DNA of 64,000 nt from Bacteroidaceae bacterium (lineage in GTDB: Bacteria; Bacteroidota; Bacteroidia; Bacteroidales; Bacteroidaceae), in contig JAFQVS010000045.1 of assembly GCA_017407905.1 (NCBI GenBank), positions 8,940-72,939 on the forward strand. Reading direction: 5' to 3'. Below are positions 29,367 through 46,686 of this stretch, one piece after another. Below the pieces are notes generated by a model. It was not told the origin of the DNA. It saw nothing but the letters and a program-made list of their open reading frames with translations, and ran no database searches. The number at the start of each line of letters is the position of its first letter. Position 1 is the first letter of the stretch. Made by a program: the position numbers and the translations under genes.

Positions 29367-29373
29367 CTCGGTT

Positions 29374-29637: not shown

Positions 29638-29645
29638 TATCTTTG
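29638..29645 (+). promoter_or_regulatory. Candidate -7 box (TATCTTTG) upstream of the FISUMP lipoprotein gene
   Basis: TATCTTTG lies 39 nt upstream of the ATG at 29684. This supports the internal ATG over the TTG at 29579 used by the ORF track. Confidence 0.5.
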
Positions 29646-29683
29646 CTGTACTGATTAAGAATTTTCACAAGCACTCCAAAAGA

Positions 29684-31042
29684 ATGAGAATAAGTAACAA
29701 TCTATTTAATCTGTTCACGTTGTTGATAGTCGGCCTCGCCGTATGCTCCATAGGCGCTTGCAGCGTCGATGACGCCGAGCCTCTATTTAAGGAGACTACA
29801 AACAACAATATCACCATAGACACAACCGGTGTTGCCGTTACAGGCGAGATAGAGAAACAAGGCATCACATACGCACATATCAAGGGGTATGCCAATTTAA
29901 ACCTTCTGCCAACGGGCAGTGGCGAGATAGGCGTGGAAATATGCCCGTCGGGCGAGGAGGTATCGGCCCACCAAAAGACCTCAAGCACTTTATCCGACAA
30001 TGCCTTTGTGATAGAGTTTGACAATCTCACCCCCGATACAGAGTACAGATACCGTTCATTCGTCCGAAGCGACGAGCGTACATACTACGGGCAATATAAC
30101 ACACTCACAACCAACGCCCTCTACCCTATCACCACCACTGTGGATGCCACCGACTTAACCCGCACCTCGGCCACAATAATCTCGACCGTACAAACTGCAT
30201 TGGCCGATCCCATAGACAATCTAATGGTGGGAGTGGCATACTCATTATCCGAGCAGGCCTTTGAAACACCATCCGAGGAGATTATTTTCTGCGGCGAACA
30301 ATCGGCCGGCGACGTCCCTGATGGGATACTCACCGTAACGCTTCGAGAGCTCAGCGAGGCAACCACATATTATTACACAACATATACAAAGGCCAGTGGC
30401 GAATATTGCTTCGCCAAGATAAAAAGCTTCACCACCTACGGAGACGATTACACCCCATCGGGCGCAGTTGACCTCGGCCTCAGTGTAATGTGGGCCACTT
30501 GCAACATCGGTGCAGACTCCCCCGAAGAGTACGGCGACTATTATGCTTGGGGCGAGATTGAGCCTAAGGAGAAATATGAAGAGGGCAACTATAAATGGTA
30601 TGACAAGTTCACAGGCAGCTATATTAAATATTGCACAGATGCCACAATAGGAACAGTTGACGATAAAACCGTGCTCGACCCCGAAGATGATGTAGCACAC
30701 GTAAAGTTAGGTGGCGGATGGCGTATGCCCACCGAGGCCGAAATAATTGAATTGTGCAAAAAATGTACTTGGGAAAAGGATACAACCTACAATGGTATTG
30801 AAGGTGCTATTGTCATCGGCCCCAATGGGAACAGCATTTTCCTTCCCGCAGGAGGATATTATTCAAAAGGCCTTTATAATAAAAAAGAAACAGGATATTA
30901 TTGGGCATCGACATTAGGAACATCGGGGCGTAATGGTGATAATTATCGACCTAAATACGGAGAGTCTTTTAACACTAACGGCATCGAGACATCATACCGC
31001 AATCGTTATTACGGTTGCTCTGTTCGCCCTGTTATAAAATAG
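29684..31042 (+). CDS. Lipoprotein: two Ig/FN3-like modules plus a C-terminal FISUMP / DUF1566-type domain
   Basis: The start was moved to ATG 29684 (MRISNNLFNLFTLLIVGLAVCSIGAC lipobox). The C-terminus has GLSVMWATCNIGA...YYAWGE...GGWRMPTEAEIIEL...YYWAST...CSVRPV. This is the Fibrobacter-succinogenes-major-paralogous / DUF1566 pattern. Confidence 0.8.
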   Translation: MRISNNLFNLFTLLIVGLAVCSIGACSVDDAEPLFKETTNNNITIDTTGVAVTGEIEKQGITYAHIKGYANLNLLPTGSGEIGVEICPSGEEVSAHQKTSSTLSDNAFVIEFDNLTPDTEYRYRSFVRSDERTYYGQYNTLTTNALYPITTTVDATDLTRTSATIISTVQTALADPIDNLMVGVAYSLSEQAFETPSEEIIFCGEQSAGDVPDGILTVTLRELSEATTYYYTTYTKASGEYCFAKIKSFTTYGDDYTPSGAVDLGLSVMWATCNIGADSPEEYGDYYAWGEIEPKEKYEEGNYKWYDKFTGSYIKYCTDATIGTVDDKTVLDPEDDVAHVKLGGGWRMPTEAEIIELCKKCTWEKDTTYNGIEGAIVIGPNGNSIFLPAGGYYSKGLYNKKETGYYWASTLGTSGRNGDNYRPKYGESFNTNGIETSYRNRYYGCSVRPVIK

Positions 31043-31197: not shown

Positions 31198-33459
31198 TTA
31201 TTCTATTCCATCCAACAGGATAAATGCAGCCCAATATTGAGGAGAGGCCCATTTTGCGTAACTGCGCACACGGTTTTTAGCGATTTTAAGAGCCTCGTGC
31301 TTAGACTTTCCCGCCATCCAATGCTTGTAAAACTCGGTCATAAGCACCTGTGTGGCATCATCATCCACCTTCCAAAGGGACATCAGAATGGCATCGGCAC
31401 TTGCCATCTTAAAACCACGCTGGAGGCCGAACACGCCATCCGAGGATATATCTCCCCGGGCCGTTTCACACGCACTGAGGACAACAAGGTCGAGCCCCTG
31501 TAAATCCAGCGTAGAAATCTCTTGCGCCGTCAGGACACCATCCTCCAGCCCCTCGGGGATGGGCGCACCGTTATAAACATTATCGGCACCCGAGAAGAAC
31601 AGTCCGCTACGCAACAGCGGGTTATCTTTATCGCCACCCCTACTATCCTTATTGTGATAGAATCCGTGAGTAGCAATATGAATAATCTTCTTTTGCTGTC
31701 CGCTCAGGGCCTTGAACGACGCCTCTGTTCCCTCGTTGGCAATATATGCCTTAGCCGAGATATTGGCCTCGTGCGAGCTATTTATGATTGAGGTGATACT
31801 GTCTGCCTCGACTCTTGTTCCCTTAAGATAAGGTATTTTTACTATCGCCGCACGCTCGGCACGCGTGTTATCCTCGACAAAGACAATATCGCGCTTACGA
31901 ACAGCCGGATAGTTGTACATATCGGCCACCATATCACGCGTACTCATATCATACGTTAATCCACCATAAATGGCAGCATCCCGTCCATCCTTTAAGCTCC
32001 GTCCCGTAATCAATTCTCTGGTAGATGAGAGACGATACACATCAAAGACATCGGCTATACTGTGATACGATTCAATTTCTCCATTCTTCATCACCGGCTC
32101 GATAAATGGTAGATACTCTATGCCCGTAACCAACAGAGCACCGTCGGCCGAAAAATAGATGCGTCCCTTATCTTTGGTTGGGAAATATTTAACAATATCA
32201 TCCGACCAGATGGCATTGCTCAGTCTCCACAAGCCGTCCATATCCTCTTTGGCATACTTTTGAAAGGGATTTCCCGACAAATGGCTATCTAACCCCTTGT
32301 ACGTACTTACTGTATCGCGTTTACTCTTAGACCGGAGAAAGTCGGGCACTAAATCCTTGAACGAGAATTTCGGAGCATCTTGCAGCGATACGTAATTATT
32401 CAATTTCACAATCTTGGGCGACGACCAACGCTTTTTCAGCAGGATGGCACCATACTCATTGCTTGTCGTACGATAAAATTCTATGGCTAAATCATCGTTC
32501 GATAGCTGATTGCGAACATCCTTCCACGTAATTGACAGCTGTGGGATAGTATATTCCTGTCCCTGCTCGCGCAGAGCCCCGAGAATGACATAATCGAGCG
32601 AGTCGAGAGTACTTTGCGCTGCCCCCGCGAGTGTCAGCCTCTTTCTAATGGTTAAATTATCAATAGCCCTTTTGTTGCCACTCTCATTGACATAACTCTC
32701 GAAGCTGACTGTTGTGTTAAGCAGCAGACCTTTGGAGAGCAACAAAGCATTATAAGCCGCCGACGCAATAGAGGGCATTCTTCCATCTGAAGAATGTGCC
32801 AAATCAACAGTTTTATTGATATATTTTGCCGCCACATTCCAATAAATATTACGCTCCGACTCGCAGCTCGAACAAAATTCGTCTTTTATCAACTGAATAT
32901 AAGAGTTATACCCCTTATTATGATATTTACTCGATTTCTTATATTTCAACCGTTCGGCATACAATCGCGACAGCTCTAATAGAGCATTCAAATAGACCTC
33001 GCTTCCTTTACCAAAATAGGCCTCCTTCAGACGGCAAGATTTTTTTGAAGACTGCACCGCCATAAAATCGCGGCCCGAGTTATACTCAATCTTGGATTTT
33101 ATATCTAAATAAAAAATCTGGTTGATTGTATCTTTACCTTTGAAGCCCCCCTTCCCGATTTTCTCAAACAGGATATTACTCTTCTTTAGCAACTCCTTTC
33201 CCAGCTCATTATCGCCTGCATCAGCACACACCGCGGCACACCACATCAAGCAATCGGCATATTGAAGGCTCTGTGCAGAATATCGTTTTTTGTACAATTG
33301 CAATAACTCATTAAGTGCCGGAGCAATATCTTTTGTGTCCCTATACAGCCGCTCTTGAATCTCGTTTTTCAGAGACTGCACCCTTAAAGAATCATTTGTC
33401 GATGCCAATATATAAACACAGCACAGCAAAGAAAGCAAAAATATATTATATCGTTTCAT
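31198..33459 (-). CDS. Exported TPR + CHAT-domain (caspase-fold) protein, short paralog (CHAT-A)
   Basis: The likely ATG is at 33459 (MKRYNIFLLSLLCCVYILAST signal peptide); the ORF-track start at 33468 is a TTG. The C-terminal CHAT core has IHIATHGF (His) and VVLSACETARG (Cys), then GVFGLQRGF...SLWKVDD...YWAAFILLDGIE. Confidence 0.88.
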   Translation of the reverse strand: MKRYNIFLLSLLCCVYILASTNDSLRVQSLKNEIQERLYRDTKDIAPALNELLQLYKKRYSAQSLQYADCLMWCAAVCADAGDNELGKELLKKSNILFEKIGKGGFKGKDTINQIFYLDIKSKIEYNSGRDFMAVQSSKKSCRLKEAYFGKGSEVYLNALLELSRLYAERLKYKKSSKYHNKGYNSYIQLIKDEFCSSCESERNIYWNVAAKYINKTVDLAHSSDGRMPSIASAAYNALLLSKGLLLNTTVSFESYVNESGNKRAIDNLTIRKRLTLAGAAQSTLDSLDYVILGALREQGQEYTIPQLSITWKDVRNQLSNDDLAIEFYRTTSNEYGAILLKKRWSSPKIVKLNNYVSLQDAPKFSFKDLVPDFLRSKSKRDTVSTYKGLDSHLSGNPFQKYAKEDMDGLWRLSNAIWSDDIVKYFPTKDKGRIYFSADGALLVTGIEYLPFIEPVMKNGEIESYHSIADVFDVYRLSSTRELITGRSLKDGRDAAIYGGLTYDMSTRDMVADMYNYPAVRKRDIVFVEDNTRAERAAIVKIPYLKGTRVEADSITSIINSSHEANISAKAYIANEGTEASFKALSGQQKKIIHIATHGFYHNKDSRGGDKDNPLLRSGLFFSGADNVYNGAPIPEGLEDGVLTAQEISTLDLQGLDLVVLSACETARGDISSDGVFGLQRGFKMASADAILMSLWKVDDDATQVLMTEFYKHWMAGKSKHEALKIAKNRVRSYAKWASPQYWAAFILLDGIE

Positions 33460-33464
33460 ACTCT

Positions 33465-34007
33465 TCAAAATGTAGTTTTTATACCAAGCCCTATTCCACT
33501 AAAGGTGCGTTCGTTGCGACAACTGAAATGCGACACTCCCACTTTTATATTCTTGTTGACATCCAATAAATAGACGGTAGAAGCATCTATTGCGGCCGCC
33601 TTTTCTCTGAGCCTTTTTCCCCATCTGAAGAAGGAATATGGAATAGTCATAGTTAGAGCAACACCGCAAGGAATCGCAACCCACGTAGAAACATCCGTTC
33701 CTGTTACGACATATACGGTGGCTGCATATAGCCCCAGCGCAGTAATAACCCCAACCGCCTCGACCTCGGCAGCCCTCATTCTTAACATTCGCTTCTTGTT
33801 TTGCATTTCAAAGTCGTATGCTCTGTTCATAGAGTTTATATTCATATAATACTCGGCCGACAGCATCGGAAGCTCGGCTATACAACTATCCTGCATCGTC
33901 TCAATAGTTTCCGTGCCATTAGTTTGCGAGTACAAGGCCGAGCAAACGATTGATACTAATATAGTAATGAGCAATCTTTTTAGTTTCATAATCCTACAAA
34001 TTACCAT
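33465..34007 (-). CDS. Small exported membrane protein (signal peptide plus 2 predicted TM helices)
   Basis: 180 aa, with an alternative ATG at 33989. The signal is MKLKRLLITILVSIVCSALYSQ. Hydrophobic helices are VGVITALGLYAATVYVV and WVAIPCGVALTMTIPYSFF. The protein ends ...GIGLGIKTTF. Its start overlaps the stop of the upstream gene (ATGGTAA), and its stop lies 5 nt before the CHAT-A ATG. Confidence 0.6.
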   Translation of the reverse strand: MVICRIMKLKRLLITILVSIVCSALYSQTNGTETIETMQDSCIAELPMLSAEYYMNINSMNRAYDFEMQNKKRMLRMRAAEVEAVGVITALGLYAATVYVVTGTDVSTWVAIPCGVALTMTIPYSFFRWGKRLREKAAAIDASTVYLLDVNKNIKVGVSHFSCRNERTFSGIGLGIKTTF

Positions 34008-34789
34008 TTTATTGTTCGTGTTATTATCGACGTGTCAAAGAGTTTTCTTGTCGAGAAAATTGGGAACGAAATTTTTGCTTCGTAATAGCCTCTTTGGTCT
34101 TTTACATTATTTAAAGAGTGATAATAAGCAATCGCATTCCTATCGAGTTGATGCAAAATATAATATCCCGCTCGTAATTCAAGTTTTATAAATGAGAATT
34201 TTGCATTTAATCCATAATAAATAGAGGCTGCAAAATTGTTAAAGCACTCATCATTAAACCCTTGATAGCTAAAAGTCTCATCGTACTTAATACGCTTGTC
34301 GAGCAAAATCTCAGCCTTAGCACCTGCACAAAATACCAACCAAGAGAAATTTACATCGGTAGTAATCCAATGGGTGTGCATTCCGAGGGTGCGAAAAAGT
34401 CCCTTGTCGAACGCAAACCTCTCATATTTATATCCTAAATTGACGCCTAATCGAAGCTGGTCATATTGAGTACTATAAAATTCACTCCCTACGCCCACAT
34501 CGACAAAAGATGAGTATATGGTTGTCATATTATCTGGAATTGCAGTAAAATCATTATACTCGAATGTTCCCTTATATATACTCCCTAAGGTACAATTGAT
34601 ATATAAATCACAGCCTATTAGGTTGGCCGTGGATTTTCGGGGCAATATCTTGACGTTGTCAATATCATCACTAAGGATGTATTTAACATAGTCAGTTTGA
34701 GCCTCGGAAATATAAGGGATAGCACAGAGGCATCCTACAAACAGGAGTTTAATATTTCTCAAGATAAATGTATTTAATTGCTCGCACAT
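34001..34789 (-). CDS. Exported protein, beta-barrel-like outer membrane candidate
   Basis: 262 aa. Signal peptide ...LLFVGCLCAIPYISEAQ, alternating hydrophobic/aromatic strands and an aromatic C-terminus (..TRTIKW). It overlaps the upstream gene by 41 nt. Confidence 0.55.
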   Translation of the reverse strand: MCEQLNTFILRNIKLLFVGCLCAIPYISEAQTDYVKYILSDDIDNVKILPRKSTANLIGCDLYINCTLGSIYKGTFEYNDFTAIPDNMTTIYSSFVDVGVGSEFYSTQYDQLRLGVNLGYKYERFAFDKGLFRTLGMHTHWITTDVNFSWLVFCAGAKAEILLDKRIKYDETFSYQGFNDECFNNFAASIYYGLNAKFSFIKLELRAGYYILHQLDRNAIAYYHSLNNVKDQRGYYEAKISFPIFSTRKLFDTSIITRTIKW

Positions 34790-35462
34790 AATAACTCTTT
34801 TTCTTTAATCTACCATCTTTTCTATCATAAGAACCAACAAGGGGTGCAACTATTGCCATATTCGAGGGGTCGGCATTCTCGTTTACAACACCCTCCTGAT
34901 TATAATTGCAATAATCCTCGGCGCAGGTCCAATAAAAATTCTCCTCATTTAAGGGCACACCACCAATTTTCGATAATACTGCGTTCAGTTCATCTAAATC
35001 TGTATTGATAACTAAGAAATCCCATGCCTCTTCCCTTGTAGGCAGACGCCAAGAGCTACTCGAGGATGGCTTATCTGTCGGGTTCTTCTTGTTGCACCAA
35101 TTCATAGCTGGATAATTCTCAATTCCCCTGCTTTTCATCAAATGAAGCATAGCCGTACCAAAAGAATCATCACCATACACTCTCTTAGGGAACCTCAGAG
35201 TATCCTCAATTTGATATACAGTCTCACCCAAAGGCCCCCACGGCAAATAAGCCTCATCTGCCGACACTACTATAATACAACTGTTGTAACTATCATATTC
35301 ACAATGTACGACGACGCCCTTATTGCCATATTCATCCACGTAGGTGTCATACAATTGATACACCTTTTTTGTCTCGTCAAAAATTATTTCATCGGATGTA
35401 TAACCGCACCCCAATAGCAGTGGGATAATAATGCAGATTAAAAATTTTAAATAATTAGTCAT
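34749..35462 (-). CDS. Lipoprotein with DUF1566-like domain
   Basis: 237 aa. Lipobox IIPLLLGC. SWRLPTREEAWDFL ... FYWTCAED ... SYYVRAIKYI matches the DUF1566 pattern (WRLPT..E / YW[ST] / V-R-x-[IV]). Confidence 0.7.
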   Translation of the reverse strand: MTNYLKFLICIIIPLLLGCGYTSDEIIFDETKKVYQLYDTYVDEYGNKGVVVHCEYDSYNSCIIVVSADEAYLPWGPLGETVYQIEDTLRFPKRVYGDDSFGTAMLHLMKSRGIENYPAMNWCNKKNPTDKPSSSSSWRLPTREEAWDFLVINTDLDELNAVLSKIGGVPLNEENFYWTCAEDYCNYNQEGVVNENADPSNMAIVAPLVGSYDRKDGRLKKKSYYVRAIKYIYLEKY

Positions 35463-35468
35463 ATTGCG

Positions 35469-36332
35469 CTAATAAAAAATACAAGTATCCAATTCCAAAG
35501 CCGAAACATCAAATGTTGCCACAAAAGGGCGATGTTCCTCATTTTTTATAATATGTTTAACCGAATTGTTACCATCGGAATCTTCGGTTCGCATTCTAAT
35601 GGCTATTTCGTCGTCGGCATTGCACAAGGATATTGGAACGATGATAGAATCCCTGTGCGAGAGATAATAATATTGATACTCATATAATCCCGATTCAATC
35701 TTCTCAATATCCTTAAAACCAAATGCCTCGACACAGTCTATTGAAGCGTTCAGGCTTTCGGCATCGCCAAAATTGGTAAACACACAATAGCCATTATAGG
35801 TCATCGGCCTGAGTTTTACAGAAAAAATCTGATTCGACGGTAACGCGTGCAACGAGGCCGACAACAGCACATTATACTGCGGCTCTGCTTTTCTATCGAC
35901 CATATACAGATAGATATTATCGTAGCGGTTGGTACCCAGCTGACACCAAGCCTCTGAGAAATTCAGAAGCTCGCCCTTCTTTAATATATCGGCCATAAAG
36001 ACAAAATAATAAGTATTGTTATTATTCAAATGGCTGAAGGTTATTTGCGTCTCGCCTAAATGGGGCAAGAGGCGAGTTTGCGTATCCAACAGCTGCCCGC
36101 CATTATCGTAGCAGTAGCATACTGTTCGCAACGCATAGGCAGTGTCAATCTTGTTGCTGCATCCCATCCTAAATTCTCCATCATCGAATGAGAGGATATT
36201 CGAGAAATAGTCGCCCGAATCCAAAATAAATGTTACGCCCCTCTGCGACGTGTCGGCCCACTCGTCGAAATTCTCCTTACAGCTTGTCAGCAAAAAGAGT
36301 GAAATGATAAGAAGTACCCGTATGCTTTTCAT
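35469..36332 (-). CDS. Hypothetical lipoprotein
   Basis: 287 aa. Lipobox SLFLLTSC. I recognise no motifs. Its start overlaps the stop of the upstream gene by 4 nt (ATGA). Confidence 0.6.
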   Translation of the reverse strand: MKSIRVLLIISLFLLTSCKENFDEWADTSQRGVTFILDSGDYFSNILSFDDGEFRMGCSNKIDTAYALRTVCYCYDNGGQLLDTQTRLLPHLGETQITFSHLNNNNTYYFVFMADILKKGELLNFSEAWCQLGTNRYDNIYLYMVDRKAEPQYNVLLSASLHALPSNQIFSVKLRPMTYNGYCVFTNFGDAESLNASIDCVEAFGFKDIEKIESGLYEYQYYYLSHRDSIIVPISLCNADDEIAIRMRTEDSDGNNSVKHIIKNEEHRPFVATFDVSALELDTCIFY

Positions 36333-36976
36333 ATTTTAAATGGAATTTCATAAGTTAGTCCGACACCTATTCTACCCCTCTCGAAGGCCGATTTATACAA
36401 GCCGTAATAGTTGTACTCCTTTGTCTCGAACAGATATTTCTGATTTATTGCGGGGGCAAGGTCGTACTCGTAGTACAACGAGGCTCGCCACCTTTTTATT
36501 TTAAAGCCGATTTTTGCACCGACCGAGAAATAGTCGTCGGCAAGATTCGCGTCCGACGTTCTTGTATCCGACAATCGGCTATGATAGGCAGAGTTTATCG
36601 CCCAATGTGAGGCTATTTCTCCTGCAACGAAAAGCGAGAATGACTTTCCGCGTATCACATTCAGCCTCAACGATGCACACAGCAGAATTTCTTGAGTAGA
36701 TATATACTCGTCGCGCCCGCCGAAATAGGGGTTGCGAATATTATATTTGAGCCCAAAATCGGCATTTAATAAATTGCGCGACGAACCAATGCCGACAGCA
36801 ATTTTGGGCGAGAAACTGTAATTGTAATTTGCCGCCGCATCTACTCCAATATCAAAATGGTAATATTCAATTCTGCCGAACCGCTCTTTCTTAATTCTCC
36901 TATAATCGGGCTGTGCCCAAATAGAATTAAGCATTAAAAAACATAAAAAAGCTGTTATAATGACTTTTCTATTCAT
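36329..36976 (-). CDS. Exported small beta-barrel-like outer membrane protein
   Basis: 215 aa. Signal peptide VIITAFLCFLMLNSIWAQ. G/Y/F-rich alternating strands (FDIGVDAAANYNYSF, ADFGLKYNI, SVGAKIGFKI, ASLYYEYDL, IGVGLTYEIPFKI) resemble small porin-family barrels. Confidence 0.6.
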   Translation of the reverse strand: MNRKVIITAFLCFLMLNSIWAQPDYRRIKKERFGRIEYYHFDIGVDAAANYNYSFSPKIAVGIGSSRNLLNADFGLKYNIRNPYFGGRDEYISTQEILLCASLRLNVIRGKSFSLFVAGEIASHWAINSAYHSRLSDTRTSDANLADDYFSVGAKIGFKIKRWRASLYYEYDLAPAINQKYLFETKEYNYYGLYKSAFERGRIGVGLTYEIPFKI

Positions 36977-37045
36977 AATCTATTCGTTCTTTTCATTAGG
37001 GGGGGTGAAGCCTCAATATTGAGACATTGGGATTTTTGGGGCCGA

Positions 37046-37318
37046 TTAAGAGCCCCAGATATTATCCCAACCGTTGCCGCCCTTACGTTTTTTTATGAAC
37101 GAAGAGCCGGCGTCGAGCTCAATGGCAATAGTAACATTGGATTTTTCAAAAACTTTGGCAGCATCGGCCTCGGGCACCTCATAGGGATAACTCTTACCCG
37201 TCATATCAATTGTCAGGAAAGGCTCCTGCGCCCAAACAGCAGGGCTCAAAAGAATAAGGAGGAGTAACAACATTCTCTTTAAAGAAAAGATTTTTTTGGT
37301 CATATTCTTAAATTTCAT
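37046..37318 (-). CDS. Small secreted protein (about 60 aa mature)
   Basis: 90 aa with a strong signal peptide KRMLLLLLILLSPAVWAQ. It lies 69 nt upstream of the coupled gene run on the same strand. Confidence 0.5.
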   Translation of the reverse strand: MKFKNMTKKIFSLKRMLLLLLILLSPAVWAQEPFLTIDMTGKSYPYEVPEADAAKVFEKSNVTIAIELDAGSSFIKKRKGGNGWDNIWGS

Positions 37319-37556
37319 TTTTCCTTTTTTGTGTAAAAATAATTAACTCGGGCTGCTCCAATATTCCGAGAATAAATAGAGGCACAAAGCTGCGCTCGGA
37401 CATTTCAGAGCAGATGCGAGTATGCGAACCCACAATAAATTCGCATACTCGTGCAAATATATTATTTTTTTTAAGAATTTATTTAAATCTGTTAAGAATT
37501 AAACTTATAAAATATTTTCTCGAAATAAAGGTCGAGACTTTTAAGTTTTTATAATC

Positions 37557-40500
37557 CTAATCTATTCCATCCAGCAAGATAAATGCCGCCCAATAACGAG
37601 GATGGGCGAAACGCCCATTTTCGCACGTTCTCAGATAATTACGTGCATTTACCAGCGCTACACGCTTCGTCTGTTTATTCGTTATCAGATTACGATAAAA
37701 TTCCGTCATCAGAATTCGAGTAGCTTGGTCGTTCACCTTCCACAACGACATTATCATTGACTGAATGCCAGCCTTTTTAAATCCACGCTGAAGGCCGAAC
37801 ACACCTTCGCCTGTAATCTCGCCTAATCCCGTCTCACAAGCCGAAAGCACCACCATATTTACATTCGTAAGGTCGAGGTGCGAAATTTCTCGCGCCGTGA
37901 GGATTCCATCATCGACATTATCGGGAATAGTCTCGCCATAAAACCAAGCTGAAGCACCCGTCATAAATAGTCCCGAACGACTCAACGATTGGTCCTCCTT
38001 ACTATCATCCTGTCTGATTAAGGTAACAGATGTTGAATCTTTAATCTCGTCCTGTGTCTGATAAAAACCGTGCGTAGCCACGTGGAGCATTGTTACATCA
38101 CTGCCACTTGTGCGTTTAAACTCATCCTCCGTTGCATTGATTGTTGTATATGTCTCGACACTCAAATTATTCTCGCTGAAGATTTCTGCAATCTGCTCCA
38201 CCTCTTTATTTGTACCCGGCAAAGGCTCTAAATAGAATGCAGCCCCGCGCTCAAATGCAGAGACATCACGCATTGCATACACATTCTCCTCGCCCTCGTG
38301 CTGATTCTTCGATGCAATCTCGGCCCATACATCATCCTTTACATAATACTCTATTCCACCATAGAGTGCAGCCTTAGTTACCAAAGGCGCAGCCCTATTC
38401 AATTGATTCTTATGCTTCACAATCTCCATTGTGTTTGAAACTCTGTAAAGATTGTACTTCTCGCACATAAGCGTATTACTGCCACCCCCTTCTGCAAGCA
38501 TATTCTCCATTGCAACCTGATACAACATACCGGTTGGAGAGAAATAGATGCTTTTTACACCGTCTAACAAATATTCAATTTCGCCATTATTAACAATATA
38601 ATAAGGCCAAATATCGTGAGTATATTTTAGATATAACGAATCGCTACTCTCTTTGATAACATCATCAATTCTATACATATTTACGAGCAAAGGGGCGTCA
38701 TAATTTTTCTTTAGAATCAAAGCATAATACCAATCGCCTTTATTTATGTATTCAATTGCCATTTCATCATCGTCTAAGGCATTCTGTACATCCCTCCAGC
38801 CGACCTCCAATGATTTTGTATAATCGTCGAAAGCCTTTGACGAGTACCACAATTCTGTCATAATCTTATCGGCCTCCATTTTCAATTGTTGCAACTCGGT
38901 TGGTGGCAAGGTTGTATCATCGAGTTGCCGCTTTATGCGCAGATAATCTTCGTACTGTTTTTGCACGGTTCTGTTACCCGACTCTTTAAGCACTTTGACC
39001 AGCTCTTGCTCGGAGCGCAACATATACCCCTTACTGAACAGCGCAAAATCATAGGCAAGCTCTCTTATTGTGTCCGAGCTATTCGGCCCGTAACCCAATG
39101 CGTTTATTATATCGGAAGATAGGGCCCCGATTCTATCCTCCAGATTCTTGTCCGAGAAAAGACGTTGACGCTGCATTTTACGTATTTCGTTCCACGATGC
39201 AACCAAATAATCGTATTTCTCTTCATTGGTCTTTTCCTCTTTCGAGTAATGATAAGCCAAAGAGACCTTAGTCTCTAAATATTTCATTTCGTCCTCGGAA
39301 ATATGTTCGATAGAATATCTATAACCAATTAAGTCATATATCAATTCACTCAGATAGACAAAAGCAGAATAATAATACTCATCATCGTTGTTTTGTAATA
39401 CGACTTTCTTTATCTGTTGTCGCAAACGGTCGGCATCTACCACAAGTTTGTAATCTTGCTTCTCATAGGCAAGAGCACATAACATATTCATTGCATCGTA
39501 ACTCTCTTGATACCTATGCAGCTCGGGGTTCTCGGACAATAACTGATATATAATTTTAAAATCATCTAACAAATACAAACGATTGCAACTGAGATGGATA
39601 GAATGATACGATATTAAACATTTGGCATACAAAACAGCCGTATATATCTCTTTTTTCTTTTTACTATCTTTTAAAAGACTTAAGAAGTAGTCCAAACGAT
39701 TAAAAGAGGAGGTAAGTTCCTTATTATAAACAGATTTTAATGTATAATTATCTAATAAATTATCAATTACACATAATGTAGCTACAATAGGCAGTTTCAA
39801 CGCATCATTGCTATCTACATACCTTAGAACATCTTTCTCGTGCTGTTCGTAGGTAATACTGTCTGTGTGCAGGCGTATTACAGAAAGATATTTAGCCCAA
39901 TAAACAACATCCCTGACATTCTCTTTTATTATAGAATCCTTCCAACACTTCATCTTTTCCATAAATGCCTCCTTTAAGCCCAAAGAATCGGCGCATAGCC
40001 CCATATTGATTGCCATACAGTGTTTGTCGTCGGTAATTATATTGTAAAATATAAAAACAGGAATAGAATCAAAAAATTCCTCATACCTATAAAATGCATC
40101 CAGAAAATTACGGTCGCGAAGCACCTGCCAAAGGCTCGGCGCATTGTATTTAGTGTAATATTTACTCTCTTTTGGCTTTGATTTATTATTCTTCCACAGC
40201 TCGAATTGCTTGTCATATTCGGCGAGGGCCTTCTTGTAAGCCGAATCCCTTTTCAATGAGTCCATATACGTAGTTGTCGCATAACGTTCCACATCCCATA
40301 CTACACGGTGATTAGATGCATCCATTTCAAATCTTACGACATCCTCTAATTCCGAGTACTTCTGATATTGGGGCGACTGCTCACCAAATTTTTCTTTTAC
40401 CCGGTTGCAATATTTATTCATAACACTATCGGCCATCAACTCATCTTTAGTTTCTTTCATTGCAACAAGGGCAAACTTTTTCAGGTTATCATAGAAATAA

Positions 40501-42125
40501 GGCGTTCCCAAACTATCCAAATGCTCCAATAATATCAATTTGGATTGAAGTAAATTCTGTTTAATCATCGACAAGGAGTATCTTACGGTATCGTAAGCAC
40601 TTACAGAATACTTGCTGTCTCTGAGTTTCATTTCTACTATTGATAAACTATTGTCAATGTGGCTTTGCCCCTTGGCAACCTCTTGTGCCGCATACTTTCT
40701 ATCCAATTTTGTATTCAGAATGTTCAATGCTGCGCCGCTTGTTTTTCGCGCTTTTACATAATAATCGGCAATCAGATAGACATAGGAACAGCATAGCAAA
40801 GGCACGTACAAATTACTGTTTTCAAACTTTATAGCATCTTCATCAGCTATTTTCAATGCTCTTTCATAATCATTCGAGTTAATATGAGCCACTGATAGAG
40901 AGACAGAAATAATGCTATACAAGTCATCAACTATGCTACCTGCATTTGCTAATTTTCGTCTTATTTCATATACTTCATCTATTAAATCATTATCTATTTT
41001 CCCGTTCATTGAGCTAATCATCAACAATAAGCTCGATGAGCCCGATAAAACAATTTGTCCTTCACTTGTTTTGACATCAGCCTTACGGACTATTTTTTTT
41101 AACAACTTTTTAGTTTTATCTACTTTATTTTGTTTAAAATAAACAATTGATTTTTGAAGTAGAGCGAGCAGATGCGGCTCGCAATATTTTCCACCATACA
41201 ACACAGATAATTCTTCGGCCGATGTAATATATTTTAACGCTAAAACATCATTTCCCATTGAATGATTTACCTCGGAGGCAGACAGCAGCAGTTGTATATA
41301 TCGCTCGCTGGCCGTGCCATAAAGTTTACTCGCTATCGACAGCATCTTTTCGACAGCCTCGTTGTATTTATCCATCATACCAACCTGAGCAAATACTTTG
41401 GACAAATTATCCCACACATTTACTGCTAAATCACTTTCGGCCTCGCCAACAGCATCTAAATAGAGTAAAAAATCATTGAATCCCTCTAATACGTCATAAA
41501 GTTCGCCTTTCATAGAGTAAACATTTATGGCTTGTTCCAAAAGAAATCTCTTGAATCGGGCATTTTTTCCATACAAATTATCGCAATCGTCCAAAACACG
41601 CTTCACATCGGCTTTTGCTTTTTGAAAATCGCCAGAATATGCCCTTAACTCGGCTATATACATACGCGTATTGATAGTCCAACGCGACTCTCGCCCTAAT
41701 GCAGCATACTCAATTTGGTACATCTCCTGCAATTTCTGTATTATAAAATTTGTATCATCCCCCTTATATGCCAATACAACTTTTGAGATAGAATCACTCT
41801 TCAGCATAAGCCTTCGGTCAATCGGCGGTAAATCGTACCCGCGCTCATCGTATAATGCTGCATTCTTTAAATCGCCCTTTTTGAAATAACAAGAGGCAAT
41901 CCAATTCCTCAAATATGTTACCCTGCTATCGAGTGAATCCAACTCCCCGGTTTCGATAGCTTTGCTCTGCTCGAAGACAAGAATCGCCTCATCATATTCT
42001 TTGGCATTGTAAAGAGCTACACCCCGTGCATATAACGAATCGGAATAGGCCAGACGAGACACATTCTGTCCGAAACTACTTTGCAACAGCAAGGTAAAAA
42101 TTATAAAAGCAAATATTCTCTGCAT
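37557..42125 (-). CDS. Exported giant TPR + CHAT-domain protein (CHAT-B)
   Basis: 1522 aa. Signal peptide MQRIFAFIIFTLLLQSSFGQ and a long all-helical TPR-like body. The C-terminal CHAT core has LHVATHGF (His) and VVLSACETGLG (Cys), then ...YWAAFILLDGID. Confidence 0.9.
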   Translation of the reverse strand: MQRIFAFIIFTLLLQSSFGQNVSRLAYSDSLYARGVALYNAKEYDEAILVFEQSKAIETGELDSLDSRVTYLRNWIASCYFKKGDLKNAALYDERGYDLPPIDRRLMLKSDSISKVVLAYKGDDTNFIIQKLQEMYQIEYAALGRESRWTINTRMYIAELRAYSGDFQKAKADVKRVLDDCDNLYGKNARFKRFLLEQAINVYSMKGELYDVLEGFNDFLLYLDAVGEAESDLAVNVWDNLSKVFAQVGMMDKYNEAVEKMLSIASKLYGTASERYIQLLLSASEVNHSMGNDVLALKYITSAEELSVLYGGKYCEPHLLALLQKSIVYFKQNKVDKTKKLLKKIVRKADVKTSEGQIVLSGSSSLLLMISSMNGKIDNDLIDEVYEIRRKLANAGSIVDDLYSIISVSLSVAHINSNDYERALKIADEDAIKFENSNLYVPLLCCSYVYLIADYYVKARKTSGAALNILNTKLDRKYAAQEVAKGQSHIDNSLSIVEMKLRDSKYSVSAYDTVRYSLSMIKQNLLQSKLILLEHLDSLGTPYFYDNLKKFALVAMKETKDELMADSVMNKYCNRVKEKFGEQSPQYQKYSELEDVVRFEMDASNHRVVWDVERYATTTYMDSLKRDSAYKKALAEYDKQFELWKNNKSKPKESKYYTKYNAPSLWQVLRDRNFLDAFYRYEEFFDSIPVFIFYNIITDDKHCMAINMGLCADSLGLKEAFMEKMKCWKDSIIKENVRDVVYWAKYLSVIRLHTDSITYEQHEKDVLRYVDSNDALKLPIVATLCVIDNLLDNYTLKSVYNKELTSSFNRLDYFLSLLKDSKKKKEIYTAVLYAKCLISYHSIHLSCNRLYLLDDFKIIYQLLSENPELHRYQESYDAMNMLCALAYEKQDYKLVVDADRLRQQIKKVVLQNNDDEYYYSAFVYLSELIYDLIGYRYSIEHISEDEMKYLETKVSLAYHYSKEEKTNEEKYDYLVASWNEIRKMQRQRLFSDKNLEDRIGALSSDIINALGYGPNSSDTIRELAYDFALFSKGYMLRSEQELVKVLKESGNRTVQKQYEDYLRIKRQLDDTTLPPTELQQLKMEADKIMTELWYSSKAFDDYTKSLEVGWRDVQNALDDDEMAIEYINKGDWYYALILKKNYDAPLLVNMYRIDDVIKESSDSLYLKYTHDIWPYYIVNNGEIEYLLDGVKSIYFSPTGMLYQVAMENMLAEGGGSNTLMCEKYNLYRVSNTMEIVKHKNQLNRAAPLVTKAALYGGIEYYVKDDVWAEIASKNQHEGEENVYAMRDVSAFERGAAFYLEPLPGTNKEVEQIAEIFSENNLSVETYTTINATEDEFKRTSGSDVTMLHVATHGFYQTQDEIKDSTSVTLIRQDDSKEDQSLSRSGLFMTGASAWFYGETIPDNVDDGILTAREISHLDLTNVNMVVLSACETGLGEITGEGVFGLQRGFKKAGIQSMIMSLWKVNDQATRILMTEFYRNLITNKQTKRVALVNARNYLRTCENGRFAHPRYWAAFILLDGID

Positions 42126-42196
42126 ACTCTTAATTTATAATCGGTTAATTATATCAATATTTTAAGGCTAAAAGCTCGGTGGCAAGTGCTTAACTC

Positions 42197-45100
42197 TTAT
42201 TCTATTCCATCCAACAGGATAAATGCAGCCCAATATTTGGGGTCGTCCCACCCCTTCTCCTTATGCGAGCGCACCAACTGCTTGGCAAGCTCAAGCGCCT
42301 CGCGTTTACTCTTGCCTTCGACCACCCAAAAGCGGTAAAATTCGGTCATAAGCATACAGGTAGCCTCGTCATCTACTTTCCACAGCGACATTAGGATGCT
42401 ATTGGCACCGGCCTTCTTCAGGCCGCGCTGAAGGCCAAAAACACCCTCGCTTGTTACATCGCCCAACCCTGTTTCGCAGGCCGAGAGTGTAATAAGCTCT
42501 GTTTGCGTTAGGTCGAGGGCCGCAAGCTCGCGTGCCGTCAGGATTCCATCATCGACATTATCGGGAATTTCCATTCCCCGCATATATGACACGGCGCCCG
42601 CCATCAACAATCCGCTGCGGCTCAATGCCTGCATCTCTTCGGTATCATATTCACTCGACTTTTTGACACCATTCCACGCCTGAAAAAAGCCGTGTGTTGC
42701 AATGTGCACAATAGCCGTGGCGAACCGCTCAGTTGCTTTACCGCCTCCTCGGTTGCAGAGACGCCCGTAAACAGTTCGGCACCCACCTTTTCGCCTTGCA
42801 GTAATTTATCAATCTCGCCGACCTCAATTTCCGTTCCGGGAAGATAGATGCTTGCACCGCGCTCGAAAGCACGTTGCAACGAGACTATATCACGATTGGC
42901 GGTACCATTTTCACCGGCAGCCGCCCGCAACGACATTTCTTGCCACTGCTCGCTGCCGAGCTCATACTCCACCCCTCCGAACAACGCCGCTGTTAATTCG
43001 CGCTGCGCCTTTTTCGGACGAATAATCTCCCGCGTATTCGACAAGCGATACATATTGTAGGCATCGCACATTGCGCTTCCGTCGGGCCGCGGCAACGACT
43101 CCATAGGCAACTGATGCAGCGCCATTGATGGAGAAAAATAGATATTCTTCACCCCAGCAAGCACCTCGTGCAATGGTTCCCATATAAGCTCGTACTGTCG
43201 TTGTCGGTTGTTTGCGGCAAGCGACAACTCCTCCTCGGGGCACAAGGCTTTAAACTGAGGTTCGAAGCCCTTTTTCAATATAAGCGCAATGATGTACGAC
43301 ACGCCATCGTCGGGCGATGCACCTTGCACAAATTCTATTGCAATTTCTCCATCCCTCAATGCACTGCGCACATCCTGCCACGAGAGTGTAAGCTGCCGTG
43401 TATAATCCCCAAAATTATGCGAAGAAGTTTCAAGAATATCATATATTCCAATTTGTTTTTCACCAAGTGAATCACGTTCGGCAGCTGACAAATTGCCGGC
43501 CATCTTTTTACGAATACTCCTTAATTCATTGCACAAAGCAATAAGAGACTCATTCCCCGACTCAAGCATAGTTCGCTCCAATTCGGCCTGCGAGCGCAGC
43601 AACAGCCCTTTGATAAAAAGAGCCGCATCGTAGGCAAAGCCACAAAAAACAGGGGTTTTATATTTTAGTACGTAACCCGTTGCTTTATTCTGCAACTGCC
43701 AAGATTTAGTATGAAAAAGATATTCGCCATAGAAAGCCGACATATATTTACCTCTAATAAATCCACGTAAATCCTCCACATCACATCGCATTGTTTCAAC
43801 CAAATGCTGTTCAAATAAATCGGTATTATTTTGTAGTTGATGACAAAGCGCCAAAAGCTCGGAAACACGTTTTATCAAATCATTTTCTTGAATATCATCT
43901 CTAAAACTGAAAGAAGAAAAATAATTAGACCTATAAACATTATCACACACTAATGGGTTATTCTGTAAGTTCTTAGGAAGGCCCATAATGCGCTCACCAA
44001 TACGAATAGCCTCATCGCAACGGCCGGCATCATATTCTATACGCATTTGCCAATACAACAAGGCTCTGTAAGTCCTTGTGGCTGTATAATTTCGAGCCTC
44101 GTGCACCCGTATGGCCTCCGAAATTAAATCGGGAATATCCGAGGGAAGAATATGGTTAATATCATCGAATATATTCCAAGACATTAGGCTTGCAGTGGCA
44201 AAAATTATAAAATTATCGTAACTTAGATTCCCCGTGCCGCACTTCTGCTTCACATCGTTTATCATCTTTTTTGTTGTAGCAACCATAAAACCAATATACT
44301 CCTCATCGCGTGCTTTTGCATAAAAAGATGATTTATTTCCAATGGCCGTCAAAAGAATTATACCCTTTAACTCGGGATTTTCGTTCCATAGAGAATCGTC
44401 GCGAGCAATTACGTTATTCACCAGATTCAGCAGCTCCTGTGCATCAGTAAACCCTATTTCTACCTTTCTCAACGTATTACAAGCCATATTAAGGTAATCC
44501 TTATGGTGCCTGTTGGCAAGCAATAGAGAGTCGAACGTGTGCGCAATATCACTCTGGCTGCAACCACTTTTTTTCATAGAATACGCTAATCGAAAAGATA
44601 AATTAGAGCCATCTGTATCTCCCAATGTAACATATTCCGGTATCCAAGATACGCGCCCAAATAACCGTTTGTAAATCTCTATTGCCTTACCATACTCACC
44701 AACTTCTTCATCATAATAAATATCGGCAATTTTATTTAAACAATCATTTGAAGCCTCGTCTAACGGAATAGAATCGAGCGCCCCCAACTCATACAAATAT
44801 TTTTGTATAACATACGAGTACTTATTTATTTCATTGCCGTAAAGCACTCTTTCGACACGTAGTATCTCGCGCAAGATGCCTTTCAATTCATCATCTAACT
44901 CATCAAATGTTAAAACCTTATATGGTGCTTTTAAGAATAAAGCACTATCGAATAGTTTGCAAAGAACATCTTCATAATTTTCTGTTGCAATATTCTCATT
45001 GTCCTGTTTCATACGTTCGCTGTAATTGCGACACACATCATACAAACGAATATAATCGTGTGTACCATCGCAACCATAATAGAAGTTAAAGAACGCACTC

Positions 45101-46686
45101 CAACACTCATCGCTATCGGCTCCAAACAGACGCTCGGCTGTGTAAAAATTCATCTCTTTGACTATATTCAGAGCAAAATTATTTTGATATATAAGACTGT
45201 CGGGACGAATACCCTCGGGTAGGAAACCAAGATTATTCGTTAGGTCCAATTTCTTATTGACACTAAAAAATCTCGAAATAATATTGTTTGTGATGGCCGC
45301 CTCTGATAGAGATAAATTCGATATATTATTCTTGTACTCATCGCAAACTACACGAAGCCATTCGGTTGCCTCGCCGAAACGATGCGCTCCCATATAAGTG
45401 GCAAATGTCAACATTTTGTATGTTAAGCCCTTACCTTTTTTGAATCTTATTTCGTCGGACATTCTGTGCAGATGCTCGCAGGAGTAGGCTGCGCCTTGAT
45501 GTATGAACAGATAAAAGAGCGTATATACATTTACCTTATCGCTCAGAAGAGCCTCTACCCTCTTCCACATTTTTGTTATTTTCTTGGGGCTGTTATCCGG
45601 GAGTGTGGATTTTGCAGCCAAAGCAATAATTGTTAATGTAGTATCATCGGGGGTGCTCAATGCCGCACGATTGCTCAGCACCTCGTCAAACTGCAAGCGG
45701 GCCTCATCGTTGCGGTTCATATCCCTTAACAACAGGCCACAAGTCAAGCGCTGATAGTCGGCCTGCCAAGAATCCTCCAATTTCACATAGAGCGAAATGA
45801 GACTGTTTTTCAATTCCAATGCCTCTTGGAAAAGGCCCAAATTATAGTAATATCTGCTCACATCGTACAAGGCATTGGCATAGGCGTATTTATCGAGAGT
45901 ATATAACTCTTCTGTTACGCCGACGAGTTGCCGCCAAGCATTTTGCAATTGCTGCTTGTCTTGTGTTAAGTAATACAATCCACACAGACTGCGCAAGGCA
46001 TTATAGTGCATCCACATAGGCTTTTCAGGAAGCCTTGCAAGCTGCTGTTTACGAGCATCAATAGCCTCTTTATAATAGGTTTCTATGGCCATTCGTTGAG
46101 CATAAAAATCCAACACACGACAATAATATAGTCCGTGCGTGGCGCCCTTCATCTCGAAAATTGTTTTTACCCTTACCAATAAATCTCGGAAATCTGATTT
46201 TCCAAGATAGTCTTTTTCGGCCCACATTTCAAGCACCTTTAGCAACAGGAGGGCATAGGCGTCTGTCTCGCCGAAACGCTCGTAATACAATTCGGCACAT
46301 TTTTGATATACTTTTGCAGCCTCGCCGGGGTTGGATGCCTCTAACGCAAGAGCCTCTTGACGCAAAGAGTCTATTTCAATTGTCAGACGGCGGTCGGTGG
46401 GGGTAATATCGAATCCCCACGGGTTTATCTCGGCAGCGCGGGCTGTGTCTCCCAAATGAAAATAACAGCCGGCCAGCCACTCGCGGCCGTACCCCCAGCG
46501 AACGTTGGTGGAATCAATCTCGGCCCTGTCCAATTTTTGCACCGCCTCGAACAGAGGTATCGCCTCGCCATATTTTGCCTCATTATATAGCTCTACGCCT
46601 TTGGCAAACAACTCATCGCTGTACCTACTTTGGGAAAAGCCAACTATTGGAAAAAATAACACAAGCAGTAACAAACGGTATTTCAT
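42197..46686 (-). pseudogene. Exported giant TPR + CHAT-domain protein (CHAT-C), interrupted by a -1 frameshift near 42720
   Basis: Two ORFs (42622..46746 and 42197..42709) together reconstitute a paralog of CHAT-B. The likely start is ATG 46686 (MKYRLLLLVLFFPIVGFSQS). The long frame decays into ..KQLSGSPRLLCTLQHTAFF.., while the +2 frame reads ATAIVHIATHGFFQAWNG, continuing into LSACETGLG ... YWAAFILLDGIE. Confidence 0.85.

Follow-up and report, generated by a model that had tools for sequence, protein, structure and literature searches.

Bacterial proteases of the caspase fold are central to bacterial immunity, as in Craspase, the activation of gasdermins, SAVED-CHAT and the TIR-caspase systems, and nearly all that is known of them concerns the cytoplasm. 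Two published descriptions lead beyond that compartment. A survey in 2012 noted that some prokaryotic homologs of caspases probably carry signal peptides and that FGE-sulfatase domains are often their partners (PMC3501461), and the structure of DdvA of Myxococcus xanthus, a periplasmic TPR-CHAT protein that controls a defence island comprising a cyclic-oligonucleotide-based antiphage signalling system (CBASS) and CRISPR, has already been solved (PMC11506125). Here we describe a stretch of 64,000 nt from the metagenome-assembled genome of an uncultured Bacteroidaceae bacterium (assembly GCA_017407905.1, contig JAFQVS010000045.1, positions 8,940-72,939), referred to below as the window. Its minus strand carries, between 31.2 and 46.7 kb, three CHAT-domain genes, CHAT-A, CHAT-B and CHAT-C; no fourth CHAT gene was found in the 64 kb. 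A sequence-only reading of this DNA had taken known TPR-CHAT proteases to be cytoplasmic, a premise that the two descriptions above correct.

The CHAT family is thus already annotated and a periplasmic relative is already solved. What appears to be undescribed is a soluble or hairpin-tethered form, encoded in a conserved envelope operon and elsewhere joined to a transmembrane TIR receptor. We found no paper on the TPR-CHAT family of Bacteroidales, save for a speculative note on a type VI secretion system (T6SS) region of Bacteroides fragilis (PMC11854122). The family is very large, with at least 580 members that appear to be built for the periplasm, and in one sub-family the protease gene is locked together with outer-membrane and lipoprotein partners, usually with a transmembrane TIR receptor as well.

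Paralogy, export signals and fold

CHAT-A, CHAT-B and CHAT-C are true paralogs with a common C-terminal module of about 500 residues, as the sequence-only reading had proposed, and their similarity is far beyond chance. CHAT-A and CHAT-B are 33% identical over about 560 residues (E 2e-70). CHAT-C matches CHAT-B with 33% identity over 344 residues and 56% over 176 residues in the C-terminal module, and again with 40% over the first 117 residues, where the N-terminal strings quoted earlier for the two proteins are indeed present in the translations. The Pfam CHAT model (PF12770) recognises all three, with E-values of 1.8e-47 for A (162.6 bits), 8.4e-51 for B (173.5 bits) and, in two matches, 4e-10 and 2e-38 for C (39.9 and 132.9 bits), the curated cut-off being 24 bits. 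The conserved histidine motif reads IHIATHGF in A, LHVATHGF in B and VHIATHGF in C, and the cysteine motif LSACETARG in A and LSACETGLG in both B and C.

CHAT-C is present in the window as two open reading frames (ORFs), 42622-46746 (minus strand, 1374 codons) and 42197-42709 (minus strand, 170 codons), with an ATG at 46686 that had been correctly given as the end of the locus. The addition of one base restores a protein of 1496 residues, close to the 1.5 thousand that had been expected of a repaired gene, and a contig from a sister strain (L080; we use such labels for the loci compared) encodes an intact CHAT-C of the same length (L080 5439-9929) together with a CHAT-B ortholog that is 98% identical. 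For CHAT-B, GenBank holds a protein of 1522 residues (MBQ2778779.1) named "CHAT domain-containing protein", which belongs to the >=90% identity cluster of the protein P0001, itself 98% identical to CHAT-B. For CHAT-A the GenBank entry is of 249 residues (MBQ2778772.1, identical to MBR3855977.1 in a second metagenome-assembled genome, or MAG) and starts at an internal methionine, Met508. The open frame, however, has 753 codons, the mechanical ORF beginning three codons further upstream at a TTG, and more than 100 orthologs conserve the 504 residues that are absent from the entry, the signal peptide among them. CHAT-A is therefore truncated in the public annotation, and its export signal is hidden.

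Signal peptides were called by a crude set of rules (a basic n-region, an uncharged h-region and a small-x-small cleavage site), with internal segments as controls. All three N-termini satisfy these rules, as had been claimed for each, the h-region being hydrophobic, and this gives predicted signal peptides of about 20 residues with cleavage at ILA/S in A, SFG/Q in B and GFS/Q in C (the slash marks the site). The glutamine that follows the site in B and C, and is not found in A, is the Q-rule of Bacteroidetes substrates of signal peptidase I (SPase I) (PMC5837995); glutamine at +1 is seen in 45-62% of family members. The same features are present in 32 of 40 CHAT-B search matches, in 111 of the 120 CHAT-A family members and in 72 of the 77 complete CHAT ORFs from 79 species-representative loci, whereas internal segments of the same proteins gave 0-1 positives. 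Even orthologs of no more than 30-45% identity keep the hydrophobic N-terminus, and TPR-CHAT proteins labelled Acidobacteriaceae and cyanobacteria, among others, likewise begin with what resembles a signal peptide. Predicted export is the norm of this large Bacteroidales family and no peculiarity of the present locus; about 93% of the more than 230 family members examined, some of them from other phyla, have signal-peptide features.

After export, the periplasm is the most likely final location of all three proteins. The Pfam CHAT match reaches to within 5 residues of each C-terminus and so leaves no room for the C-terminal sorting domain (CTD) of the secretion system of type IX (T9SS); neither Por_Secre_tail nor the type B CTD gave a Pfam match in A, B or C. 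Nor is there a conserved lipobox cysteine in the CHAT proteins. The proteins are therefore read most simply as soluble in the periplasm or peripherally tethered there.

The histidine of the ATHG motif and the cysteine of the LSACET motif are invariant in three independent family alignments, giving the dyads H598/C664 (A), H1352/C1430 (B) and H1332/C1404 (C). For CHAT-A, which has 472 homologs, H598, G599 and C664 are invariant across 58 aligned sequences. A profile of the catalytic half, built from 16 sequences that include all three window proteins, finds DdvA as its best match among PDB sequences (E 1.9e-8) and also reaches Csx29. Its alignment places the THG histidine on DdvA H862 and the SAC cysteine on DdvA C907, residue for residue, and these two residues are the canonical dyad in the DdvA structure paper (PMC11506125); the proposed superposition on a caspase-type dyad is borne out in this alignment. 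The breadth of the profile was needed, as a single-sequence PDB search with the CHAT-A catalytic domain did not reach DdvA or Csx29, and with full-length relatives in the alignment the profile search was dominated by TPR proteins.

CHAT-A, alone of the three, was modelled with AlphaFold2 (AF2) from an alignment of 58 homologs (predicted local distance difference test, pLDDT, 85; predicted TM-score, pTM, 0.78). In the model, residues 1-320 form a helical-repeat arm, residues 324-500 a mixed alpha/beta region and residues 545-753 a catalytic CHAT half, the sub-domain labels being assigned by analogy with separase and Csx29. The shared module of about 500 residues is, in this model, made up of linker helices, a mixed alpha/beta half and a catalytic CHAT half, as in separase and Csx29, and the top Foldseek matches in the PDB are DdvA, human and yeast separase, Csx29 of type III-E CRISPR and SAVED-CHAT. 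The predicted fold of CHAT-A and the intact His-Cys dyad of all three mark the window proteins as putative cysteine proteases of clan CD and of the separase/Csx29/DdvA type. The earlier description is least secure where it speaks of TPR arrays. A helical-repeat arm is present in the CHAT-A model and matches kinesin-light-chain TPR domains (Foldseek E 4e-5 to 1e-4), but the Pfam TPR matches of A, B and C all fall under the gathering score; strong TPR matches are found in many relatives.

Table 1. Positions of the features discussed, in window coordinates
Feature	Position	Strand	Description
tRNA-Leu(taa)	29281..29367	+	borders the low-GC island
f487	29684..31042	+	probable surface lipoprotein (SIGAC/SVDD) with FN3-like repeats and C-terminal FGE-sulfatase/FISUMP-like domain; convergent with CHAT-A
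CHAT-A	31198..33459	-	753 aa, predicted exported helical-repeat + CHAT protease; closes the six-gene operon; His598 codon 31668-31666, Cys664 codon 31470-31468
s180	33465..33989	-	174 aa, predicted exported (LYS/Q); YY..N..R.YD[FY]E motif, hairpin of two hydrophobic helices, C-terminal G-x-G-x-K..F
s262	34001..34789	-	predicted exported (SEA/Q); orthologs at the same position in all nine CHAT-A loci
s237	34749..35462	-	lipoprotein (LLLGC); weak DUF1566/Lcl_C-like (C-type-lectin-like) signature WRLPT...YWT...VRAIK
s287	35469..36332	-	lipoprotein (LLTSC), all-beta; invariant FDE and Gln30-Arg31 shortly past the lipidated Cys; may belong to the type V pilin (FimA/Mfa) superfamily
s215	36329..36976	-	predicted exported (IWA/Q), probable small outer-membrane beta-barrel, operon gene 1; weak OMP_b-brl (E 0.0045) and DUF5777 (E 0.0073) matches
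BNR_3/RicinB-like remnant	37046..37342	-	about 98 codons left of a gene for a predicted exported protein of 1495 aa, which L080 has intact; phmmer E 4e-36
CHAT-B	37557..42125	-	1522 aa, predicted exported long-arm helical-repeat + CHAT protease; His1352 codon 38072-38070, Cys1430 codon 37838-37836
CHAT-C	42197..46686	-	1496 aa, predicted exported long-arm paralog with -1 frameshift; His1332 codon 42694-42692, Cys1404 codon 42478-42476
CHAT-C frameshift site	42719..42720	-	CC in the window, CCC in sister strain L080 (DNA alignment); 1-bp deletion, the sole local difference

The CHAT-A operon and its relatives

A six-gene envelope operon, conserved in order across the loci examined, ends with CHAT-A. 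Five small ORFs, 5 nt apart or overlapping, lie between CHAT-A and CHAT-B, and every one of them has a signal peptide or a lipobox (Table 1). The comparison covers nine CHAT-A loci: the window, the sister strain L080, and L081, L083, L085, L101, L166, L167 and L168, which represent seven other lineages. The CHAT-A orthologs at these loci, which are all those whose context was fetched, are 45-67% identical. Homologs of all five small ORFs stand upstream of CHAT-A in the same order at eight loci, and L167 has four, without the hairpin protein s180. Their phmmer E-values range from 1e-13 to 1e-72 and are weaker only for the fused s180 module of L166 (5e-7). A metagenome scan with a CHAT-A profile returned mainly distant relatives and one true ortholog locus, L101. 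None of the five small ORFs has a homolog in the 79 CHAT-B-type loci described below, so that they do not accompany exported CHAT proteins in general but are specific to the CHAT-A sub-family. The long-arm forms CHAT-B and CHAT-C stand alone, outside this operon, and the earlier picture of one functional, expanded family gives way to one in which CHAT-A alone of the three has a conserved operon.

The tie between s180 and CHAT-A is one of gene fusion. Among the 120 CHAT-A family members listed, 9 have the s180 module, motif and hairpin together, joined to the N-terminus of CHAT-A, and at one fusion locus the separate s180 gene is correspondingly absent. In the fusions the order is signal peptide, motif, hairpin and TPR-CHAT; because a hairpin returns the chain to the side from which it entered, the TPR-CHAT part would lie on the exported side. 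The start of s180 in the window (Met7) was taken from the ortholog P0169. The family has 68 representatives among 1.84 billion proteins, all of 122-209 residues, and in 63 of these an aromatic last residue follows a G-x-G-x-K pattern. A match of Phage_holin_3_6 to the hairpin of one s180 ortholog (E 0.058) is not significant and was not used.

The lipoprotein s287 was also modelled with AF2, from a shallow alignment of 9 sequences that gave a poor model (pLDDT 58). The top 13 Foldseek PDB matches of this model are all Bacteroidales lipoproteins of the FimA/Mfa type (E 2e-7 to 2e-4, TM-score 0.25-0.35), Mfa2, Mfa3, BT2657, BF2867 and DUF1812 among them. There was no Pfam FimA/Mfa match and no PDB sequence match even at permissive thresholds, and that s287 may be pilin-like is a lead and not a result. 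Acidic residues follow its cysteine, and a Gln-Arg pair stands 13 residues past the lipidated cysteine, ahead of the first beta-strand. For s237 the Lcl_C match has an E-value of 0.008-0.04 in all three members tested, in each case under the cut-off; s262 has no Pfam match and no PDB sequence match; and no significant match came from PDB sequence-profile searches with s287, s262, s237 and s215.

In five of the seven other lineages (L081, L085, L166, L167 and L168) the operon is directly preceded by two further genes, one for a TIR-TM-FGE-sulfatase protein (TM, transmembrane) and, following it, one for an exported protein of about 215 residues, x218. The former (L081 2512-3810, L085 1081-2520, L166 3030-4334, L167 3048-4346, L168 1392-2711) encode proteins of 430-480 residues, in which an N-terminal TIR domain without a signal peptide is followed by a single TM segment and, at the C-terminus, an FGE-sulfatase domain. 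This architecture resembles that of a TIR receptor that spans the membrane and has a lectin-like sensor in the periplasm; we found no description of them in the searchable literature. The TIR part matches the defence TIR models of PADLOC, and it is the generic TIR part alone that does so. At L101, where the contig ends, and at L083, x218 is found on its own, and a lipoprotein of about 430 residues (x430) is encoded in three of the five receptor-bearing lineages and at L083. The window has f487 beside CHAT-A (ORF 29579-31042, 487 codons; the start at Met36, 29684, is our own reading). Homologs of f487 immediately follow TIR-TM-FGE and x218 gene pairs at L029 and L105, and f487 is possibly the one link of the window to the TIR-FGE gene neighbourhood.

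The protein x218 is one of three exported families of about 215 residues, with x213 and x226, that stand beside different modules (TIR-FGE, kinase/protease and others; examples are L081 3826-4482, L085 15661-16302 and L085 10272-10952). They have no Pfam match and are mutually homologous (hhalign probability 96-99.5%). Among the accessory families no others are related by hhalign, and the lipoproteins s287 and x430 show no detectable relation.

The wider family was surveyed in one genome per GTDB species with the C-terminal module as query, which gave at least 600 stretches and at least 580 confirmed relatives, the best 79 of which were examined as loci L001-L079. Nearly all of these 79 are labelled Bacteroidota, mainly Bacteroidales, and come mostly from rumen and gut MAGs; Prevotella, Bacteroides, Muribaculaceae, Paludibacteraceae, Rikenellaceae and Odoribacter are represented. 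Tandem CHAT paralogs occur at 14 of 70 loci. Among the neighbours of these CHAT-B-type genes, stand-alone CHASE2 membrane protein genes stand directly upstream of exported CHAT genes at 18 of the 79 loci, an exported protein of about 390 residues is encoded at 15-17, exported Peptidase_C14 caspases at 12 and WD40-caspases at 6. OmpA-like proteins and a kinase/protease (trypsin) module also recur, and no neighbour is universal. These sequences suggest that periplasmic proteases of the caspase fold are varied and widespread in Bacteroidales. Examples of the CHASE2 and caspase neighbours are L051 6265-7566, L014 7218-8141 and L039 539-4006; we found no literature linking CHASE2 with the CHAT domain.

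In the window, the three CHAT genes lie in an island (29.5-46.7 kb) with a guanine-plus-cytosine (GC) content of 0.38-0.47, compared with 0.52-0.56 in its flanks, set between a tRNA-Leu gene and the hut operon. A mobile-element origin was considered and is unsupported, the tRNA-Leu end having no att-like repeat and the island no integrase. The sister strain has, between CHAT-B and the operon, a gene for a BNR_3/RicinB-lectin-like protein of 1495 residues (L080 14830-19317) and an ORF of 57 codons; that only the remnant listed in Table 1 is kept in the window implies a deletion of about 4.3 kb in its strain.

Comparison of CHAT-B with its orthologs shows that the long arm diverges faster than the catalytic module (44% identity as against 64-68%, and 28% as against about 50%). 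Between the window and the sister strain, a single strain pair, the ratio of non-synonymous to synonymous substitution rates (dN/dS) is 0.24 for the arm of CHAT-B and 0.05 for its module, and 0.33 and 0.22 for those of CHAT-C. Both genes are under purifying selection throughout in this pair, the arms being less constrained. The arms had been called diversified ligand sensors; their faster divergence agrees with this, but dN/dS in the one strain pair points to purifying selection and does not support diversifying selection. In the catalytic module the same comparison gives 15 non-synonymous and 19 synonymous differences for CHAT-C, and 4 and 22 for CHAT-B. The raised ratio in the CHAT-C module hints that this gene is under relaxed constraint and that its frameshift is genuine decay rather than an assembly error.

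Two features elsewhere in the window may be recorded. ARAGORN places an 89-nt tRNA-Glu(ctc) at 52550-52638 on the minus strand, inside and antisense to an amidohydrolase (hutI-like) ORF (52336-53571), and this is probably a false positive. An ORF of 394 residues (24292-25476, plus strand) has an odd architecture, its sole Pfam match being to the C-terminal domain of ribosomal L7/L12 (residues 355-394), just under the cut-off.

What the proteases may do

What is the function of exported proteases of this kind? The reading that we favour, with our own judgement evenly divided, is that A, B and C are partner-gated, site-specific periplasmic proteases that act on envelope proteins, with a role in surveillance or defence of the envelope. 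After cleavage by SPase I the three proteins would remain in the periplasm, where the hairpin protein s180 would hold CHAT-A at a membrane. The helical arm would be a protein-binding platform for a partner or ligand, and binding would turn on a resting dyad, as happens in separase and Craspase and has been proposed for DdvA. Activated CHAT-A would then cut envelope proteins at specific sites, most plausibly its own operon partners, and the invariant Gln-Arg 13 residues past the lipidated cysteine of s287 is the candidate cut site. The long-arm proteins CHAT-B and CHAT-C would each act alone and on ligands of another kind, with CHAT-C inactivated in this strain. That the role is most likely one of surveillance or defence at the level of the envelope is suggested by three features that together tilt the balance: most lineages link the operon to TIR receptors and other conflict-type genes, the setting is variable and resembles an island, and the paralogs have expanded.

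Several points weigh against this reading. The window has no gene for TIR-TM-FGE or for x218, and the sister strain, too, is without the receptor; a search of the window for CHASE2, exported C14 caspase, OmpA-like protein, WD40-caspase, DUF4407, TIR-FGE, x218, x395, x430 and the kinase module found none of them. Because the locus is without the TIR receptor and the other recurrent conflict neighbours, the defence role is a matter of guilt by association in other genomes. The NCBIfam and PADLOC (PADLOC-DB v2) models gave no significant match to CHAT-A, CHAT-B, CHAT-C or the five small ORFs. No att-like direct repeat, integrase, phage gene or mobility gene was found in the island or its flanks, no conserved partner genes of CHAT-B or CHAT-C were seen among the loci compared, and dN/dS in the one strain pair gives no sign of diversifying selection on the arms. 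Both flanks of the s180 hairpin are basic, so that a hairpin in the inner membrane would have its flanks in the cytoplasm. The cleavage of s287 at Gln-Arg is something that we purely infer, and exported TPR-CHAT members have no published substrate or function.

The main alternative, which we consider rather unlikely, is that CHAT-A serves in the maturation of a surface structure. It would cut s287, and perhaps s237, after a conserved arginine in the manner of a gingipain, for release or polymerisation on the surface, and the operon would build an adhesin- or pilus-like structure and not a sensor. Type V pilins are lipoprotein precursors that are matured by clan-CD gingipains (PMC9046445), and s287 would suit such a scheme in its lipobox, in the acidic residues after its cysteine and in the invariant Gln-Arg before its first beta-strand, as well as in its 13 structural matches, all of which are to type V pilin or anchor-family lipoproteins. 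The lectin-like appearance of s237 and the outer-membrane-protein-like products of the operon also point this way. The structural matches, however, come from a model of low confidence at TM-scores of 0.25-0.35, with neither Pfam nor PDB sequences in agreement; the window has a single pilin-like gene and no candidate for a stalk pilin; and the linkage to TIR-TM-FGE genes in most lineages is left unexplained, as are CHAT-B and CHAT-C.

That linkage is the basis of a second alternative, an immunity of Toll-like form that spans the envelope, in which the periplasmic CHAT protease would act on a ligand, or else on the FGE-sulfatase domain that TIR-TM-FGE exposes to the periplasm, and so switch on the cytoplasmic TIR domain for NAD+ cleavage or signalling, the window having a reduced version that has lost the receptor. 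The position of the receptor gene and x218 directly upstream of the operon in five lineages, the receptor topology and the match of its TIR part to defence models all agree with such a scheme. So do the FGE-like f487 next to CHAT-A, whose homologs follow TIR-FGE genes elsewhere, and the association of caspases with FGE-sulfatase domains, a recurring theme (PMC3501461). The window and the sister strain are evidence to the contrary, since the operon is intact there under purifying selection where the receptor is absent and must be able to work without it; adjacency, moreover, may reflect no more than a shared location in islands. We regard this as improbable.

Similarly doubtful, in our estimation, is an extension of the favoured reading in which the CHAT-A operon is the core of an undescribed immune or surveillance system resident in the envelope of gut Bacteroidales. 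Surface-exposed lectin- and pilin-like lipoproteins and small outer-membrane proteins would report an insult such as phage adsorption or a competitor's toxin, the tethered protease would turn the report into a proteolytic signal, and TIR-TM-FGE would relay it across the inner membrane in most lineages. If true, this would be a bacterial counterpart of the signalling from extracellular protease to Toll and TIR.

Two further schemes are both very unlikely. In the first, which resembles DdvA, the TPR-CHAT proteins would be periplasmic sensor and site-1 protease modules that control a sigma factor of the extracytoplasmic function (ECF) class. DdvA is the closest solved relative by both structure and sequence, and at some related Bacteroidales loci there may be small TPR or anti-sigma-like genes nearby, but the window proteins have a cleavable signal peptide in place of a zinc-binding anti-sigma domain and TM helix, no sigma or anti-sigma gene is present among the island genes scanned, and anti-sigma factors like DdvA are reported only in Myxococcota and one Comamonas species (PMC11506125). 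In the second, exported CHAT proteins would protect against toxins, degrading or sensing effectors that competitors deliver into the periplasm by T6SS or as bacteriocins, in the manner of immunity proteins. The periplasm is where many effectors act, and in B. fragilis the V2 variable region of the GA3 T6SS locus encodes, next to effectors, CHAT proteins that have been speculated to be immunity proteins (PMC11854122). That proposal is speculative, the B. fragilis proteins are no more than possible members of this family, and there are no T6SS genes in or beside the island.

Last, the idea that the starts are mis-called, so that the hydrophobic N-termini are artefacts and the proteins cytoplasmic, has the signal-less GenBank entry for CHAT-A in its favour and is hardly credible, downstream starts being excluded by the conservation of the N-terminal regions as protein (for CHAT-A, some 500 residues of an open frame, kept in more than 100 orthologs with the n/h/c pattern) and by the next in-frame methionine of CHAT-B, residue 106, which falls within a conserved N-terminal repeat, while the ATG of CHAT-A stands only 5 nt past an upstream stop in the window and in the orthologs checked (L081, for example).

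Should the favoured reading be correct, with these proteins as sensors or processing enzymes of the envelope, they would open a barely explored compartment of bacterial conflict and surface biology in dominant bacteria of the gut and rumen. The hairpin fusion offers a concrete start for reconstitution of a complex, and the invariant Gln-Arg of s287 a concrete candidate for a substrate site.

Comparison with known systems

How, then, do these proteins compare with proteases already described? The prokaryotic C14 caspase homologs (metacaspases and orthocaspases; PMC3501461) share with them the caspase fold, probable export signals, FGE-sulfatase domains and, in Bacteroidetes, operons with several paralogs. 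They differ in belonging to PF00656 and not PF12770, in having neither the long helical arm nor the mixed alpha/beta half, and in never having been tied to this operon. Gingipains of Porphyromonas gingivalis (clan CD, C25) are likewise exported cysteine proteases of Bacteroidales, and they mature lipoprotein precursors at the cell surface (PMC9046445). They are, however, of another protease family, with a T9SS C-terminal domain and attachment to the surface, and the likeness of s287 to a pilin comes from a low-confidence model. Gasdermin-activating proteases offer no closer parallel, as no gasdermin gene was found by Pfam among the neighbouring ORFs, all of which have export signals.

Separase (PDB 9HM7, 7NJ1, 5U1T) has a helical-repeat arm and a protease domain that match the CHAT-A model with Foldseek E-values of 1e-10 to 1e-5, and its His-Cys dyad corresponds to the CHAT dyad (PMC11506125). 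It cleaves after arginine in a defined motif and is a model for site-specific rather than bulk proteolysis. In contrast, it is eukaryotic, acts in the nucleus and cytoplasm under regulation by securin and phosphorylation, and is only about 10% identical. Csx29 of Craspase (PDB 7Y9X, 8EEX, 8EEY, 8D9F) combines TPR and the CHAT fold (Foldseek E about 2e-10, TM-score 0.34-0.40), has GACET in 8D9F where the window proteins have SACET, and supplies the concept of an allosterically gated dyad. Csx29 is cytoplasmic, however, bound to Cas7-11 and activated by target RNA; by Pfam and PADLOC there are no cas genes (Cas7-11, Csx30/31) among the island genes, and no repeat array is present in 29.2-47.1 kb.

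The closest likeness is to DdvA, also an extracytoplasmic protein with helical repeats and a CHAT domain, which is the best Foldseek match of CHAT-A (E 1e-10) as well as the best match of the catalytic profile, with the dyads aligned. Catalytic activity has not been demonstrated for DdvA either. DdvA comes from another phylum and forms a dimer; it possesses a zinc-binding anti-sigma domain in the cytoplasm together with a TM helix, pairs with an ECF sigma factor and regulates its CBASS/CRISPR island. The window proteins, by comparison, begin with nothing more than a cleavable signal peptide and lack a partner of the sigma or anti-sigma kind, and CHAT-A is instead accompanied by a separate, sometimes fused, hairpin anchor and by four other envelope partners.

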